DNA of 64,000 nt, from contig CAWAWS010000018.1 of assembly GCA_963785725.1 (NCBI GenBank), positions 96,001 to 160,000 of the forward strand, in the 5' to 3' direction. Position numbers: made by a program. Below are positions 3,001 through 60,000 of this stretch, in pieces. This DNA comes from an uncultured delta proteobacterium (GTDB lineage: Bacteria; Myxococcota_A; Polyangia; Palsa-1104). Position 1 is the first letter of the stretch. Each line of letters starts with the position of its first letter.

Positions 3001-6000
3001 CGCATAGCGCGCTCACCGTGTCACGCAGCATCATCATAGGCGGCACCGGCGCCTCCGGGACGCCGGGGGCGCCGGGCGCCGCGCTCGCTTGCGGCACCGT
3101 CGGCGCATCGGGCGGCACGGCGTTCGATTGCGGCGGCTCGACGGGCGGCTTCGGCACCGCCGCCGGCGACGCCACCAGCGGCGGCGCGGCCGGCACCGGC
3201 GGCAGCAGCAACTGCCCCGACGCCTGCCCGCTCGTCGGCAGCGACGGCATCAGCGACGGCAGCGACGGCACGCCCGGCGGCAACGGCAGCGACGGCACCG
3301 GCGGCACGGCGCCGACCGACGTCTTCGGCAGCTTCGGCACGGGCGGCGTGTGGCAGGGCACCGTCGGCACCGGCGGCACGCGCGGCTTCAACGGCACCGG
3401 CGGTGGTGGCGGCGGCTCGGGCGGCACCAAGCGCATTCGCAGCTGCTTCGGCTGCGGCACGCTCATCGGCGGTCGCGGCGGCGACGGCGCGCCCGGCGGC
3501 TGCGGCGGCGGACCGGGCGGCGCGGGCGGCGCCGGCGGCGGTGCCTTCGCGGCCGTGCTCGTCGACTCCGAGATCACCTTCGACAACGTCACGGTGCAAG
3601 GCGGAACCGGCGGGCTCGGCGGCGCCGGCGGCGACGGCGCCGGCGGTCAAGCGGGCAGCACGGCGATCGACAACGGCATCACCGGCAGCGCGTCGTCGAA
3701 GTGCGGGCTCATCAATTATCACTCGGGTAACGGCGGCCATGGCGGCGTCGGCGGCAACGGCGGCAACGGCGGCGGCGGCGGCGGCGGTGCGGGCGGGCCG
3801 TCGGTGGCGCTGGCGCGCATCGGCAGCTCGGCCGTGACCGAGCTGCACACGGTGACGGTGATGCCGGGCGCGGCGGGCATCGGCGGCGCGGGCGGCAAAG
3901 GCCCGGGCGCGGCCGGCGCGGCTGGTCCGCTCGGCGGCGTCGACACCGATCGCGCATTCTAAGGACTTAGAGCGCGACGATCGATTCCGGAGGATGGTGG
4001 GCCCGTCGGAAATTTCCCCCGACCGCCCACCCCACTTATCGGCGCATGGCCCAAGAAAGTTGCGCCCTAAGAGCTGGGCTGTGCTGCCGGCGCGACATGG
4101 ACGACGTGCAGTGGCCGTGCTACGAGCGCGAGGTGGGCAGTCGCGATCCGTCCAACGGCTATGAACGGAACGCAGCCGACTTCATCGAGGTGCGCAGCGG
4201 CATCGGCGCCGGCATGGTGGCCGCGTGGGCGCGCGCGCTGCCGGCGGCCGCGGCGATCCTCGACTTGGGCTGCGGGTCGGGCGTGCCGATCGCCGAGACG
4301 CTCGTCAACGCCGGCTGCGAGGTCTACGCTGTCGACGCCTCGCCGACGATGGTTGCTGCGTTCCGCGCCCGCTTTCCCCAGCTCGCCGTGCAGTGCGCTG
4401 ACGTCGAGGACGCTGATTTCTTCGGACGCAGCTTCGACGGTATCGTTGCCTGGGGTCTCATCTTCCTGCTCGATGCCGGCGCGCAACGCCGCCTGATCGC
4501 CAAGATAGCGGGCGCGCTGCGGAGCGGCGGCAGCCTGCTGTTCACGGCTCCTCGCGTCGCCTGTTCCTGGCCCGACGTCATGACCGGGCAGACCTCGATC
4601 TCGCTCGGTCTCGACGAATATCGTCGTCAGCTGGAAGCAGGCGGGCTCACGCTCGTCGGAACCGAGACGGACGAAGGCGACAACCACTACTACCGCGCGG
4701 TCAAACGATAGCCGCGTGCGCTTCAACATCGATAGTGTGAGCTCGAACGACCGTTGAAGCGGCCGGAGCGACGATAGTTTAACCTTGAACTACTCGGGAG
4801 CGAGCTAACTCAGGAGCGCGGCAGCCCCTCGAGGTGCGCCGCGATTTTGTTCGCAAGGTCTTCGGCGGCCGGCTTCAGCGCCGGCGCCAGCATCGCGTTC
4901 ACGAGCGGTCCGGCGGGGCCGCCGGCGTCCATGCGCAGCCGAAACGTCAACTGCGACTCCGCCGCGCCGGCCGCTGCCAACCGCTCGGGCGCCTTGCCGT
5001 TGACCCAGCGGAACATCAGCCGGAAAAAGCCGTCGACCAAGCGGCGCCACACGCTCGCCTTCGCCGGCTTCGCCTTCTCGATCGCCGCGCCCGCCGTCGC
5101 CGCCGGCTTGCCGATGGTGAGCGTGCCGCCGCCTTCGACGACCTCGTCGAGCCCGACCAGCGTGAACGACACGCGCTCCGGGCCGTTCCATTCGGTGACG
5201 TGCGCCTTCAATCGCACCGTCCGGCTCAAGACGCCGACGTCGCCTTTGAGCGTCCAGATCGAGTCGGTCTCGCTCTCGATCTCGTGCTTTTGATAGCCGG
5301 TCAAGAACGGCGCCCAATTGTTCATGTCGCGCACGAATTCCCACACCCGCTCGGGCGCCAAGGTCATCGTCGTGACGTATTCGACTTCGGGCATGGGCTC
5401 GCTCTCCTTCGCTTCGCCTACAGTGGCTACGTGTTGCGCGCGGCGGCGCGTCCGGCGATGTAGCCGAACGTCATCGCCGTGCCGATGGTGCTGCCGGCGC
5501 CGGGATAGCCCGGTCCGGTGATGCCGGCCATGACGTTGCCGGCGGCGTACAAGCCGGCGATGGCGCCGCCGCGCACGTGCAGCACGTTCGCCTTGTCGTC
5601 GACGCGCGCGCCGCCTTTGGTGCCGATGGCGCCGGGATGGACCTCCAGCGCGTAAAACGGCCCCTTCTCGATCGTGCCCAAGTTGGGGTTCGGCGTGTGC
5701 TCGGGATCGCCGTAGAAGTGGTCGTAGAGGCTGGTGCCGCGGCCGAAATCCTGGTCTTTGCCGTCGCGCGCGAAGCCGTTGAAGCGCGCGACCGTCGCGT
5801 CGAGGCCGGCCGCGTCGATGCCGATCTTGGCGGCCAGCTCGGCGACGGAGTCGGCGCGGCGAATCCACTCCGGCACCGGCATGCCGGGAATGATCGTGAG
5901 CAGCGCATACCGCTCGACGAACTGCTGATCCAAGATCAGCCACGCCGGCAAGTTCGGCCGTTCATAGGCGACCGGATCGAAGCCGAAGAACGGCTTCATC

Positions 6001-57000: not shown

Positions 57001-60000
57001 CCAGGCTGATCGGATCGGGCGACAGCGGCGCGAGATAATAGGGATCGAGCTGCGTCACCAGCACATCTTGCAAGTCGCCCAACGACGAGCGCCCGAACGC
57101 GTAGACGAGCGCCGTGTCGATGTCGCCGTGCTGCAGCCGCACCCACGCTTCGTACAGCGCCCACGCGCCGTCCATCTCGACGTGCGACTCCTGAATCGGC
57201 GGCCACGCGCCGACGGCGTCGAGCGCCGCGACGAACGAGAACGGCATGCCGGTCAAGAAGTCGGACGAGCCCGAGATGCAAAACCCGATGGCGTGCCGAT
57301 CGAGCTTGGCCGCGTCGAGCGCCGCCGTCACGACGTCCATGACCAGCTCGGCGTCATTGAGCTGCGTGCGCCGCACGAACGGCGTCTCGGCGTACGAAAC
57401 AATCGCCACCGGCCGCATTACAAATGCTCCTTGTACGAGTCGTACGGCGCGTCGGGCTCGCCGGTGGGCTTGAAGTGATCGATGCTCTCGAGGCTCGGTC
57501 CCAAGGTCTCCGACCAGACCGCGCGAACGCGCAGCCCCATGCGGATCTCGTCGGCCGGCGCCTCTTGGATGAGGTGGAACAGCGTCGTGTCGGCGCCGTC
57601 GAGCATGATGGACGCGCAGGCATAAGGCAGCGGGCGCGCCTTGGCGTCGAAGTTGATGTTGATGATGCAGAACGTCGTGACCGTGCCGGTGTCGGCCACC
57701 GGCACCTCCTCGTCGGTGGGCACGCCGCAGGTCGGGCAGGCGCCGCGCGGCGGCAACGTCACTTTGCGGCACACCGGGCAGCGCTGGCCGAGCAGCTTCC
57801 CTTCGCTCAACGCGCGCAGGAAGCGCGAGCTGGCGCGGCCGGCGTTGACCGTGTAATGCAGCCGAATCGGCGCGACGAAGCCCTTGATGATGTCGCTCAC
57901 GAGCCGCTCTCCAGGTCGAAGCAGGCGAGGTCGCGAATGTGGCCGACGCGCTCGGCGGCGAACCGCGCCTTGACGCGCACGCCCGACTTCATGCGCGCCG
58001 CCGAGCCGGCGTCGACGGCGTGCAGCATCGCCGTGTCGGCGCCGTCGAGCTTCACCAGCGCCCAGGCGAACGGTTTCTGCAGCGGGTGATTGGCGCGCGG
58101 CGTCTCCACCCACGCCCACGTCGTCACCACGCCCGTCGGCGGCAAGGTCACGAACTCGACGATGGGCTCGCCCGTCTCGTCATATTCGACGGCCGGCACG
58201 AGCACGCGGCCCGTCTTCGTGCGCACGCCTTCGATGCGCTCCTCTTTCAACGCCGCCAAAAACCGCCCGATGATGGGACCGCACGAGCGGCGGTAGTCGT
58301 AGGAAAGTACATACGGCGCGGTCAGAATCTCGTCCGCCATGACGCGCTCCTAAAGGATCAGTCGTCGAACAACAGGTTGAGGTACGGCTTGTCGCTGTAG
58401 TCGGTCGCTTCGCCGATGTGGATGTGCTTGAGCTGCTGGAATTCGGCGAGCCCGTAAGGTCCGAGCTCGCGGCCGAAGCCCGATCTGCTTGTAGCCGCCG
58501 AACGGGAAACGCACGCTGATCAAGTGGTAGTCGTTGATCCAGATGGTGCCGGCGTCGATGCGGTCGGCGAGCTTGCGCGCGCGCTCGATGTCGCGTGACC
58601 AGACGGCGCCGCCGAGTCCGTACATCGTGTCGTTGGCGACGCGGATTGCCTCTTCGTCGTCCGCCACTTTGATGATGGAGACGACCGGTCCGAAGATCTC
58701 TTCGCGCGCAATCTTCATTTCATTGCGCACATTGATAAATATTGTCGGTTCGTAGAAGTATCCGTTCGGCAGGTCGCTCGGACGCTTGCCGCCGGTGACG
58801 ACGGTGGCGCCCTCTTCACGGCCGGCGTGGACGTAGCGCTCCGAGTTGTCGCGCTGCTGCGCCGAGACCAGCGGCCCGAGCGACGTCGCGAAGTCCATCG
58901 GGTCGCCGACCTTGAGCGAGCGCGCGCCGGCGATCATCTTCTCGACGAATTCGTCGTGGATCTTGGCGTTGACGAGGATGCGCGTGCCCGATTCGCACAC
59001 TTGGCCCGAGTGGAAGAAGGTGCCGAACAGGGCGCCGCGCACGGCACAATCGATGTTCGCGTCTTCGAGGATCAGGTTGGGCGACTTGCCGCCGAGCTCG
59101 AGCGTCAGCTTCTTCAGCGTCGGCGCCGCCAGCTCCATGATGCGCTTGCCGACGTTGGTCGAGCCGGTGAAGGCGACCTTGTCGACCGCTCTGTGCGTGA
59201 CCAGCGCTTCGCCGAGCGCCGCGCCCGGCCCGCACAAGACGTTGACGACGCCCGGCGGCACGCCCGCTTCCGAGCACAGGGCCGCGATCATCAGCGTCGT
59301 CACCGGCGTGTACGGCGACGGCTTGACGATGATGCTGTTGCCGGCCGCGATCGCGGGCGCGATCTTCCACGCGGCCGCCGCCATCGGAAAGTTGAACGGC
59401 GTGATGCACGCGCACACGCCGAGCGGCTCGCGCTTGACGATGTTGCGGCTGTTGACCGGGACGTTCTCTTCGAACTCGTCCTCGTCCGGCGTCGACGCCA
59501 CGAGGTCGCCGTAATACTGGAACGTCTGCGCCGTCGCCGGAATGTCGGCGACGTTGGCTTTGCGCAGGGTGCCGCCCGAGTCGGTCACTTCGGCGACGGC
59601 GAACTCCTCGGCGCGCTCGAGCAGCAGCTCGGCGACCTTGCCCAAGATCGCGCCGCGCTCTTGGCCCGACATGCGGCGCCACGGACCGTGGTCGAACGAG
59701 CGTCGCGCCGCCGCGACGGCGAGCTCGACATCGGCCGGCCCGGCCGCGGCGACATGCGCCCACGGCTCGCCGGTCGCAGGATTGATCGTCGCTTGCAGCC
59801 CGCCGTCGGCCGCCGACTGCCATTGTCCGTCGATGAACAGCCCGAAGTCCTTCATCGCCACCGTCCTCCAAAGGCGCACAAATCCCGTCGCGCCTGCCGA
59901 AGCAGCGCGTTGCCGTCGCTCGAGATGTGCAGTCGCGTTGCGGTTACTTCTTGGGCGGGAAAATCGCTTGCATCTTCTGCGCGAGCAGCACGTTGCCGGT

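Follow-up and report, generated by a model that had tools for sequence, protein, structure and literature searches.

Does a myxobacterium that makes sterols also degrade them and, if so, how are the two processes kept apart? The question is raised by a stretch of 64000 nucleotides (hereafter the window) from an uncultured myxobacterium, in which an initial annotation had placed a steroid catabolic cluster. According to the available parts of two surveys (PMC4810484 and PMC5790920), the pathway is restricted to Actinobacteria and Proteobacteria. In Lee 2023 (PMC10202945), Lee 2024 (bioRxiv 10.1101/2024.11.01.621555), Lee 2026 (PMC13277303) and Zhai 2024 (PMC10942540), as far as their accessible text goes, myxobacteria are the producers and Mycobacteriales the degraders, and myxobacterial ring cleavage goes unmentioned. 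Our literature search found no report of sterol-making myxobacteria degrading sterols, and the pairing of synthesis with repressor-controlled ring breakdown in one genome is not known from the two recognised sterol-degrading bacterial groups. We consider it probable, judging from sequence, that this organism is a sterol producer and, separately, a sterol burner using the aerobic 9,10-seco route gated by KstR.

A 9,10-seco steroid catabolic cluster

Profile and structure-database matches, together with an operator scan, revealed an aerobic 9,10-seco steroid catabolic cluster at 4.8–60.4 kb of the window (Table 1), containing CYP125, side-chain enzymes, two KstD-like proteins, two KshA proteins, HsaA/C/D/E/G/F, FadD3, IpdAB and a KstR-like repressor. 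The predicted KstR regulon spans 2307 to 60380. The location annotated initially was borne out, and further families in the cluster scored above their cut-offs (PRK07938, PRK07856, PRK07831, PRK07791, PRK07799, PRK08313 and PRK07937).

Table 1. Features of the window. Paired scores are profile score/curated NCBIfam cut-off; boxes are predicted KstR operators.
Feature	Position	Strand	Evidence
Two KstR boxes (2307, 2338)	2307..2351		4 and 35 bp upstream of 535-aa ORF
535-aa protein, signal-like N-terminus, predicted regulon member	2355..3962	+	Boxes upstream
SRPBCC/polyketide-cyclase-fold protein, final gene of kstD run	4822..5400	-	Polyketide_cyc2 5e-11; 79% to G003
KstD-like flavoprotein 1	5427..7076	-	PRK12844 494/789 (below cut-off); PDB 7p18 4e-102
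KstD-like flavoprotein 2 (Delta1 or Delta4 dehydrogenase)	7103..8758	-	PRK12844 326/789 (below cut-off); 80% to G003
SDR, candidate hydroxysteroid dehydrogenase	8772..9596	-	Family matches
EchA19-like enoyl-CoA hydratase	9599..10399	-	PRK07799 395/316; NF051848 370/400 (below cut-off)
Two KstR boxes	10408..10455		Also present in G003 and G012
Amidohydrolase-family protein, kept in related clusters	10483..11290	-	Family match, cluster comparison
KstR boxes, one exact and one mismatched, divergent promoter	11305..11350		Operator scan
KshA1, 3-ketosteroid 9alpha-hydroxylase oxygenase	11380..12342	+	KshA_C 2.5e-50; PDB 4qdc 1e-64
Insertion between kshA and hsaA	12343..14800		Absent from G003
PcfJ-like ORF inside insertion	12731..14014	-	Flanked by 98% identical direct repeats (12406–12700, 14157–14439)
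Two KstR boxes ahead of hsaA	14802..14850		Operator scan
HsaA	14906..16078	+	NF045629 456/450 (above cut-off)
HsaC/BphC-type extradiol dioxygenase	16086..16970	+	HsaC 252/450 (below cut-off)
HsaD-type C-C hydrolase	16967..17809	+	NF045632 191/400 (below cut-off); GNSHGG and GHWV motifs
HsaE, HsaG, HsaF (hydratase, acylating aldehyde dehydrogenase, aldolase)	17806..20527	+	Aldolase 546/286; acetaldehyde dehydrogenase 469/282
Three acyl-CoA dehydrogenases	20580..24139	+	Family matches
FadD3-family HIP-CoA ligase	24150..25826	+	NF005801 754/657 (above cut-off)
C/D-ring operon	25883..34590	-	Family and structure matches; G003 comparison
Two KstR boxes (34616, 34650), divergent promoter of C/D-ring operons	34616..34663		Conserved in G003, G012
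SDR (PRK07856) and beta-lactamase-family esterase	34688..36705	+	Family matches
Acyl-CoA dehydrogenase, SDR (PRK07831), two MaoC-type hydratase subunits	36950..39874	-	Family matches
KstR box and F420-dependent LLM oxidoreductase	39917..40980	+	TIGR03559 394/335; operator scan
LolA-like/DUF1329 periplasmic protein	41385..42134	-	Family match; beside MMPL transporter in G003
Acyl-CoA ligase with three KstR boxes (two exact)	42374..44025	+	Family match; operator scan
Three KstR boxes ahead of cyp125	44047..44116		Operator scan
CYP125-type steroid C26 monooxygenase (predicted)	44154..45377	+	PDB: ancestral CYP125 2e-147, natural CYP125 4e-98
KstR-like TetR repressor, own box at 45474	45474..46098	+	NF033703 128/280 (below cut-off)
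KshA2	46095..47075	+	46% to KshA1; motifs intact
CMD/AhpD-family protein	47153..47587	+	Family match
Side-chain operon	49613..59879	-	Family matches
SCP2 sterol-carrier protein, heads side-chain operon	59944..60380	-	SCP2 5e-21; KstR boxes 60332, 60367

For rings A and B, the KstD-like proteins had KstD as their best solved-structure match (KstD1, 4e-102, for flavoprotein 1) although both score below the cut-off, and KshA1, likewise with a steroid enzyme as its best structure match, has intact Rieske and mononuclear iron motifs. Homology and operon order place HsaA, HsaC and HsaD side by side, followed by HsaEFG, with HsaC matching the structure of BphC (2e-68) ahead of that of mycobacterial HsaC (6e-57). 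The insertion upstream of hsaA is of odd composition (98.9th percentile of the genome).

The C/D-ring operon encodes an EchA20-like protein, IpdA, IpdB, an IpdC-like NMO, a hydratase, two acyl-CoA dehydrogenases, a FadA6-like thiolase and an SDR; the family matches were computed, and the names EchA20, IpdC and FadA6 are assumed or carried over from the initial annotation. The SDR next to the esterase is presumably IpdF-like. IpdA and IpdB had steroid enzymes as their best solved-structure matches (5e-72 and 7e-78 respectively). IpdAB-type genes are present as first annotated, but the 517-aa ‘IpdAB’ ORF proved to be ipdA frameshifted into the ipdB frame, and ipdA is intact in the related genome G003. 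The side-chain operon contains genes for an aldehyde dehydrogenase, two OB-fold proteins, two thiolase-like aldolase subunits, an acyl-CoA ligase–thioesterase fusion, two acyl-CoA dehydrogenases and an NMO, some of which are presumably Ltp3/Ltp4, FadD19 and FadE26/27, names again assumed or taken from the initial annotation.

The description of the cluster as complete was overstated, as KshB and HsaB are absent from it; none of KshB, HsaB, KSI and 3beta-HSD/oxidase was recognisable inside the cluster. Elsewhere in this 88% complete genome, five NAD_binding_1 genes were found (best 28% to a KshB-like protein), the nearest KshB candidate is a MOSC–reductase fusion on contig C5 (28%) with no box, and a boxed FNR-like gene on C14 is without a 2Fe-2S domain. 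The nearest HsaB candidate is an unlinked flavin reductase on C39 (43%; NF045630 177/230, below cut-off), also with no box, and PF01613 of the flavin reductase family was not found in the genomes G003, G012 and G433.

Sterol synthesis genes in the same genome

The cyclase, SdmA-like, SdmB-like, Sterol_MT_C and ERG4_ERG24 genes were confirmed on contig C9. The cyclase scored slightly below its cut-off (835/851 bits), has the DCTAE motif and is nearer to lanosterol synthase (3e-129) than to SHC (5e-51). Two EBP genes lie on C39, a CYP51 with a ferredoxin tail (frameshifted in the assembly) on C6, and squalene epoxidase on C15, split by a frameshift here and whole in G003 and G012. This set of epoxidase, cyclase, CYP51, SdmAB-type C-4 demethylation, C-24 methyltransferase, C-14 reductase and EBP predicts that the organism makes its own sterols. 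The earlier claim that a single organism is both producer and degrader has genomic support, and the combination repeats in independent genomes: both pathways occur in G003, G012 and eight genomes of genus g23, and in G193 the cyclase, epoxidase, kshA, hsaA and ipdB genes are all on one contig.

KstR operators on catabolic genes

The predicted 14-bp KstR operator, TnnAACnnGTTnnA, occurs as 18 exact copies in the window, all at most 100 bp upstream of start codons, and 25 matches with up to one mismatch were observed against 4.6 expected (0/100 shuffles). It lies at catabolic promoters and at the promoter of the repressor itself, whose top four PDB matches were all KstR (best 5e-21). The 535-aa protein behind the first two boxes had no Pfam or NCBIfam match. 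The assumed KstR2 motif gave two one-mismatch matches against 0.39 expected (7/100 shuffles) and was not counted as present; only one KstR-like gene and no second such repressor was found, and the C/D-ring genes carry KstR boxes at 34616, 34650 and 39917 instead of KstR2 sites. The window motif is identical to the tested KstR operator in the available part of Kendall 2007 (PMC1995591).

Outside the window, boxes were found on at least eight other contigs, preceding genes for an MMPL protein with a sterol-sensing match, a BstB-like protein, START, a GMC oxidase, a 3beta-HSD-like SDR and two Steroid_dh proteins, as well as nuoA; several of these boxes are single and weak (scores 15–20). The loci for cyclase, epoxidase, CYP51 and EBP had no box (best score at most 5.3, compared with 20–27 in the window), and neither had the cyclase/epoxidase loci of G003, G012 and G193. 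KstR operators on catabolic but not synthesis genes, which the initial annotation had not noted, suggest a mechanism for keeping both pathways apart.

In a scan of 45 genomes, the window genome had the most strict boxes (27). Between 11 and 27 were counted in 18 of the 21 genomes with IpdB and HsaA, and at most four in 19 of the 20 without IpdB. The KstR orthologue was missing in all three box-free relatives and present in both cluster-free genomes having boxes. One genome, G017, combines KstR and a cyclase with 16 boxes, yet is without IpdB, KshA_C, HsaA and HsaC, and its boxes are mostly before non-steroid genes.

Distribution and origin

The trait is not that of one organism, as was first supposed, and is spread over many families: IpdB queries matched 110 of 401 genomes of the phylum and HsaA queries 28 of 301 of the class, so a large group of steroid degraders in soil and sediment may have escaped notice. 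A cyclase accompanies HsaA in 11 of the 28 and is lacking in 17, so the pathway persists in genomes that make no sterols themselves; the share of 11/28 is about that of the class (119/301), kin not being independent.

The best matches had been described as actinobacterial. The nearest relatives are instead other Myxococcota, and the HsaA tree, in which the window protein groups with other Myxococcota and proteobacteria and has the proteobacterial clade as its sister group (SH-aLRT 93), rejects an Actinomycetota grouping (p-AU 0.00025). In the IpdB test such a grouping was not rejected (p-AU 0.24), and the IpdB protein is closer to actinobacterial (52–61%) than to proteobacterial (43–51%) plasmid copies.

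Alternative explanations

That assembly or binning joined an actinobacterial degrader to a myxobacterial producer, a concern raised at the outset, is largely refuted. The cluster and the cyclase are on separate contigs and many IpdB matches are actinobacterial, but the tetranucleotide distance of the cluster is native (4th–71st genome percentile against 97–98.5 for six actinobacterial loci), the closest match of gpsA, which lies on the cluster's contig, is to a Myxococcales record (79%), a syntenic cluster plus cyclase occurs in G003 and G012, one of them of the same genus, both pathways share one contig in G193, and KstR boxes are dispersed over at least eight other contigs. It is also very improbable that the cluster is real but decaying here. 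Six genes are frameshifted in this assembly (near 33200 in ipdA, 30750 in the hydratase, 27640 in the FadA6-like thiolase, 58480 in the aldehyde dehydrogenase, 54450 in the ligase–thioesterase and 52656 in an acyl-CoA dehydrogenase), but the rate equals the background (6/47 against 13/162 genes; Fisher p=0.39). Decay would also fit the kshA–hsaA insertion, the in-cluster MMPL gene of G003 that is absent here, and the same-genus genomes G001 and G004, which are without the cluster, a weak box being left at the orthologous promoter in G001. Against it, hsaA retains its own two boxes despite the insertion, the strict boxes are the most numerous of all scanned genomes, and identity to G003 is 78% in the cluster compared with 73% elsewhere.

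It seems to us distinctly unlikely that the cluster degrades not membrane sterols but bile acids, hormones or other steroids, or related ring compounds: HsaA and HsaC are more similar to testosterone/cholate and biphenyl enzymes of proteobacteria than to the mycobacterial proteins, and the window CYP125 had no match at 1e-110 in any of 19 genomes of family f5, but CYP125, SCP2, the EchA19-like, thiolase-like and OB-fold genes and the KstR operator all belong to the sterol route. Somewhat less unlikely, though still doubtful, is that the pathway chiefly recycles the organism's own sterols (in starvation, in development or to set the membrane sterol level), KstR being a sterol-homeostasis switch. 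Boxes on the Bst-like transport operon and the SDR/Steroid_dh operon, both also found in cluster-free sterol makers, the retention of KstR and boxes in G017 without ring cleavage, and the 11 genomes with both pathways are consistent with this; the 17 HsaA-positive genomes without a cyclase, the cyclase share equal to that of the class, the many sterol makers (most of them) without the cluster and the unboxed core synthesis genes argue against it.

Proposed route and its implications

In a producer that separately burns sterols for carbon and energy, the main substrate is probably external, namely soil, fungal, plant or prey sterols. Entry would be through MMPL, BstB-like and LolA-like proteins, with START and SCP2 proteins as carriers. 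Oxidation by CYP125 and the action of an acyl-CoA ligase would yield a C26 CoA thioester, releasing KstR; side-chain beta-oxidation would follow, KstD and KshA would open ring B, HsaA–G would remove ring A, and FadD3 and IpdAB would finish rings C and D. A single KstR-type repressor on 14-bp operators may govern all catabolic promoters, including those of the C/D-ring operons, plus transport and entry genes elsewhere. The ligand of mycobacterial KstR is, in the available part of a review, a steroid C26 CoA thioester, free cholesterol causing no release; membrane sterol would therefore be no trigger as long as no surplus or foreign sterol has undergone oxidation and activation.

A cell that both synthesises sterols (C-24 methylation included) and cleaves their rings faces a futile-cycle problem, to which KstR operators at catabolic and transport genes, with none at synthesis genes, are a testable answer. 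The regulon also suggests which genes might serve sterol uptake in Gram-negative cells and which might encode the reductases of KshA and HsaA that the cluster is missing, and a possibly overlooked degrader group bears on sterol turnover and on sterane biomarker survival. More speculatively, the Myxococcota could add a third lineage to the aerobic steroid degraders, one that is old and widespread and perhaps the origin, or a sister to the origin, of proteobacterial ring-A genes. In its sterol makers a single KstR switch would link the transport of sterols with their remodelling and breakdown and, through the boxes before nuoA, with respiration, giving own-sterol turnover and homeostasis by synthesis plus regulated degradation; we consider this less likely than not.

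Comparison with known systems

The cholesterol 9,10-seco pathway and KstR regulon of Mycobacterium and Rhodococcus, as far as the available parts of PMC1995591 and a review (PMC6678751) describe them, share with the window CYP125, side-chain enzymes, KstD-like proteins, KshA, HsaA, HsaC–G, FadD3 and IpdAB, and an autoregulated TetR repressor, KstR-like here, whose 14-bp operator is identical. In contrast, the host here is Gram-negative with sterol synthesis, the C/D-ring operons are under KstR boxes with a single KstR-like gene and no KstR2 operator found, kshB and hsaB are missing from the cluster, and MMPL, BstB-like and LolA-like genes are in the regulon. The testosterone/cholate cluster of Comamonas and Novosphingobium pNL2 has the sister clade of HsaA and a similar C/D-ring block with MaoC, SDRs and an NMO, whereas the window has CYP125 and sterol side-chain genes, an IpdB closer to actinobacterial copies and, going by the accessible descriptions, KstR in place of TesR/TeiR. 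Myxococcota sterol biosynthesis, in the available text of PMC10202945, bioRxiv 10.1101/2024.11.01.621555 and PMC13277303, involves the same cyclase, SdmAB-like pair, CYP51–ferredoxin, ERG24 and EBP. MMPL and BstB-like genes are shared with the Bst transporters, as partly accessible in Zhai 2024 (PMC10942540), and the Bst-like operon here bears the catabolic operators.

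The steroid catabolic cluster

A Pfam and NCBIfam scan of 71 window ORFs, in which seven trimmed ORFs were scanned again, assigned nearly all genes between 4.8 and 60.3 kb to aerobic steroid catabolism; profile and solved-structure matches both bear out the cluster proposed in the initial annotation (see the Table). The window covers C18:96001–160000 of the source genome (8.9 Mb), which is 88% complete with 1.5% contamination. Steroid enzymes were the top solved-structure matches for IpdA/B, KshA, KstD1, the P450 and the TetR; for the extradiol dioxygenase, BphC ranked above mycobacterial HsaC. 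Curated NCBIfam cut-offs were passed by HsaA and FadD3, and KstD, HsaC, HsaD and KstR scored below them. The names EchA20, IpdC, IpdF, FadA6, Ltp3/4, FadD19 and FadE26/27 are assumed names, some of them those of the first annotation. An apparent IpdA–IpdB fusion (517-aa ORF) proved to be a frameshift by comparison with the same-genus genome G003.

The pathway had been called complete, which overstates it. No KshB, HsaB, KSI or cholesterol oxidase was found within the cluster, and the gene set has a gap at the reductases expected to supply KshA and HsaA with electrons. An HsaB-like reductase (43% identity, 177/230 bits against the cut-off) lies on contig C39 and a reductase fusion with 28% identity to a KshB-like protein on C5, both without an operator; the HsaB family was present in two of five genomes examined and not found in G003, G012 or G433 (the latter two being further genomes with the cluster). 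A split KshB on C14 (101-aa ORF plus FNR) was rejected, as the small ORF resembles a lipoprotein and not a ferredoxin. A Novosphingobium KSI query gave no match at 1e-4.

Table. Features of the source genome and relatives, with predicted KstR operators (boxes)
Location	Feature	Basis, operator or remark
Window cluster	Two KstD-like flavoproteins, two KshA	Pfam/NCBIfam
Window cluster	Run hsaA-C-D-E-G-F	Pfam/NCBIfam
Window cluster	Eight acyl-CoA dehydrogenases, FadD3, IpdA/IpdB	Pfam/NCBIfam
Window cluster	CYP125, thiolase-like and OB-fold side-chain genes, SCP2, a TetR	Pfam/NCBIfam
Window 2355–3962	Uncharacterised 535-aa protein; candidate surface sterol-binding or hydrolytic protein	After two KstR boxes; no relative among loci fetched
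Window 12343–14800	Insertion between kshA and hsaA: PcfJ-like gene	Flanked by ~290 bp direct repeats, 98% identical
Window ~36700–36880, ~41040–41190	Weaker copies of the ~290 bp repeat	Also on other contigs
Window 47648–49578	Sel1-repeat gene and uncharacterised ORF interrupting cluster	Different genes there in G003
Window 52962–55220	Side-chain acyl-CoA ligase with C-terminal 4HBT thioesterase domain	Same in G003 (756 aa) and G012
C18:161162	SnoaL-fold gene, putative KSI candidate	Boxed
L004:13001–14242 (C18)	NodC/chitin-synthase-like glycosyltransferase, 12 kb past window	TIGR04242 164/550
C9	Cyclase, SdmA-like, SdmB-like, C-24 methyltransferase, ERG24	
L001:7330–8163 (C9)	Membrane protein adjoining cyclase, like cycloeucalenol cycloisomerase; kept in G003, G012	Atlas 0.92, low recognition score
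C15	Squalene epoxidase	
C6	CYP51-ferredoxin	
C39	Two EBP	
C16	MMPL transporter with sterol-sensing match, then DUF1302-like, BstB-like (153/350) and TPR genes	Strong box upstream
C15	START protein	Strong box upstream
C14	Lipoprotein and FNR-like gene	Strong box upstream
Outside window	SDR, zinc dehydrogenase, F420 oxidoreductase, hydrolase, SnoaL-fold gene	Strong boxes upstream
C39:183605–183639 (L343)	nuoA	Two boxes (26.8, 18.6) directly upstream
Outside window	GMC oxidase, PlsB, a Steroid_dh	Weaker boxes upstream
Outside window	3beta-HSD/SdmB-like SDR and Steroid_dh operon	Weaker box upstream
L189:6067–7627 (G433:C166)	MlaE-type permease genes	Within G433 cluster

KstR operators and the wider regulon

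The KstR operator TnnAACnnGTTnnA, a tested motif according to PMC1995591, had 25 matches in the window at ≤1 mismatch versus 4.6 ± 2.2 expected (100 shuffles). All 18 exact sites lay ≤100 bp upstream of a start codon, many in pairs, and among the promoters covered are that of the repressor gene itself and the two of the C/D-ring genes; sites stood at orthologous positions in G003, G012 and G433. The KstR2 operator, in the pattern assumed here, was not enriched in the window.

The strict consensus TRRAACRYGTTYYA was then counted in 45 chosen genomes. Eighteen of the 21 with both IpdB and HsaA had 11–27 sites (the remaining three being G009 with 4, G137 with 5 and G221 with 1), four with IpdB only had 2–4, and 19 of 20 without IpdB had 0–4. 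The exception, G017, has 16 strict sites, a cyclase and a KstR orthologue at 61%, with no ring genes. In this same-order sterol maker, boxes were observed near a GMC oxidase, a DGAT-like acyltransferase, a redoxin and uncharacterised genes (L353–L367, L373). A KstR orthologue also occurs in G258 (4 sites), and genomes G001, G004 and G010 had neither sites nor orthologue by this count.

A matrix built from the window sites gave 57 sites genome-wide at a score ≥14, several of the weak ones intragenic. The two boxes at nuoA may tie complex I to the KstR regulon, and the permease genes of G433 suggest uptake by an Mce/Mla-type system in place of MMPL. The box of the SDR and Steroid_dh operon scored 16.9 in the source genome, 19.6 in G003 and 12.8 in cluster-free G001 of the same genus; G004 and G010 lacked it. 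The source genome reached a matrix score of at most 5.3 at its cyclase, epoxidase, CYP51 and two EBP loci, and in G003, G012 and G193 (a member of genus g23) no site at ≥12 accompanied the cyclase or the epoxidase.

Integrity and origin of the cluster

A chimera was argued against by composition and synteny. The tetranucleotide distances of 10-kb window pieces fell at the 4th–71st percentile of the genome, with six actinobacterial loci at 97–98.5, and gpsA on the same contig best matched a Myxococcales record (79%). In G003 (99% complete) the cluster is in identical order, with a median identity of 78% versus 73% for other genes, and the cyclase locus is syntenic to C9; G012 likewise has cluster and cyclase. 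Compared with G003, frameshifts affect 6 of the 47 cluster genes, against 13 of 162 other genes (Fisher p=0.39). Since the cluster share matches the rest of the genome, the splits are background and most likely represent assembly indels, as initially annotated, although the three frameshift sites checked had no homopolymer run ≥4 nearby and so do not indicate the error type.

Transfer from Actinobacteria, weighed because of the actinobacterial best hits, was contradicted by one tree and compatible with the other, both built from rows chosen by likeness to the query and hence biased towards Myxococcota. The HsaA tree, from a quick search on 48 rows of which only four were actinobacterial, put the window protein in a clade of 24 Myxococcota and one Dadabacteria, sister to proteobacterial HsaA; grouping with Actinomycetota was rejected (p-AU 0.00025), and with it an actinobacterial donor for HsaA. 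The IpdB tree, drawn from 67 of 119 rows after surplus Nocardia, Amycolatopsis and Dactylosporangium had been left out, placed the window protein among Myxococcota, opposite 20 of 21 Actinomycetota and 7 of 7 Proteobacteria, with weak support and the root on one long branch; a clade of its group with Mycobacteriales and Pseudonocardiales was not rejected (p-AU 0.24). Recent import of the pathway from Actinobacteria is unlikely, and long residence with losses and transfers within the phylum fits.

Distribution and co-occurrence with sterol synthesis

IpdB was strong in 4 of 41 order-level relatives, the source genome counted. Pfam KshA_C alone was rejected as a marker because it overcounts, matching 27 of the 41, mostly weakly and without IpdB. 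The survey query first labelled IpdA was IpdB with ~50 out-of-frame residues, so its counts are IpdB counts. The following counts include kin, are not independent and carry no association statistic: IpdB in at least 110 of 401 phylum genomes, cyclase in 50 of the same 401 and both in 13, four of these without HsaA; among 80 genome entries (of 123; three controls and three duplicates included), HsaA in 58 and a KshA match in 71; and among 301 class genomes, HsaA in 28, cyclase in 119 and both in 11, namely the source genome, G003, G012 and eight of genus g23. HsaC was found in 26 of the 28 HsaA-positive genomes, 9 of the 11 dual genomes and none of four controls; a match to the window CYP125 at 1e-110 was seen in 9 of the 28, and these include no genome of family f5. 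Contig C9 of G193 carries ipdB, kshA, hsaA, cyclase and epoxidase together, and pathway genes also occur in named Polyangiaceae, Polyangiales and Myxococcota records. In genus g23 (e.g. G193, G057 and G124), IpdB, HsaA and several KshA paralogues were present in 18 of 18 sampled genomes and cyclase in 8 of 18, with hsaC away from the main cluster.

The sterol synthesis genes of the source genome were located too (C9, C15, C6 and C39). A C15 P450 was ruled out as CYP51, which was found on C6. The residues that would indicate the cyclase product are ambiguous in alignment at position 381, and the cycloisomerase-like neighbour of the cyclase is the sole hint of a possible cycloartenol route.

Proposed function and relation to known systems

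By the known pathway, sterol would enter the cell, undergo oxidation at C26 and at C3 and be converted to a CoA thioester. A review states that in mycobacteria KstR is released by this thioester and not by free cholesterol; similarly, membrane sterol here would be spared for as long as no excess or foreign sterol reaches CYP125. The 4HBT domain of the side-chain ligase could tune the inducing thioester. Turnover of the cell's own sterols may be the purpose of the pathway, and external sterols as food are the simpler and rather probable one, because 17 of the 28 HsaA-positive degraders have no cyclase.

The pathway is stated to be confined to Actinobacteria and Proteobacteria in PMC4810484 and PMC5790920, whose main text has neither 'delta' nor 'myxo'. 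We found no published report of the pathway in Myxococcota, although supplements and subscription papers may hold myxobacterial cases; the proposed novelty for Myxococcota agrees with these surveys. Taken together, genes and operators argue that a third phylum has a real 9,10-seco pathway under KstR control, whose genes occur alongside those of sterol synthesis in two or more lineages. The chemistry and the switch are already known; the host, the combination with synthesis and the one-repressor layout are new.
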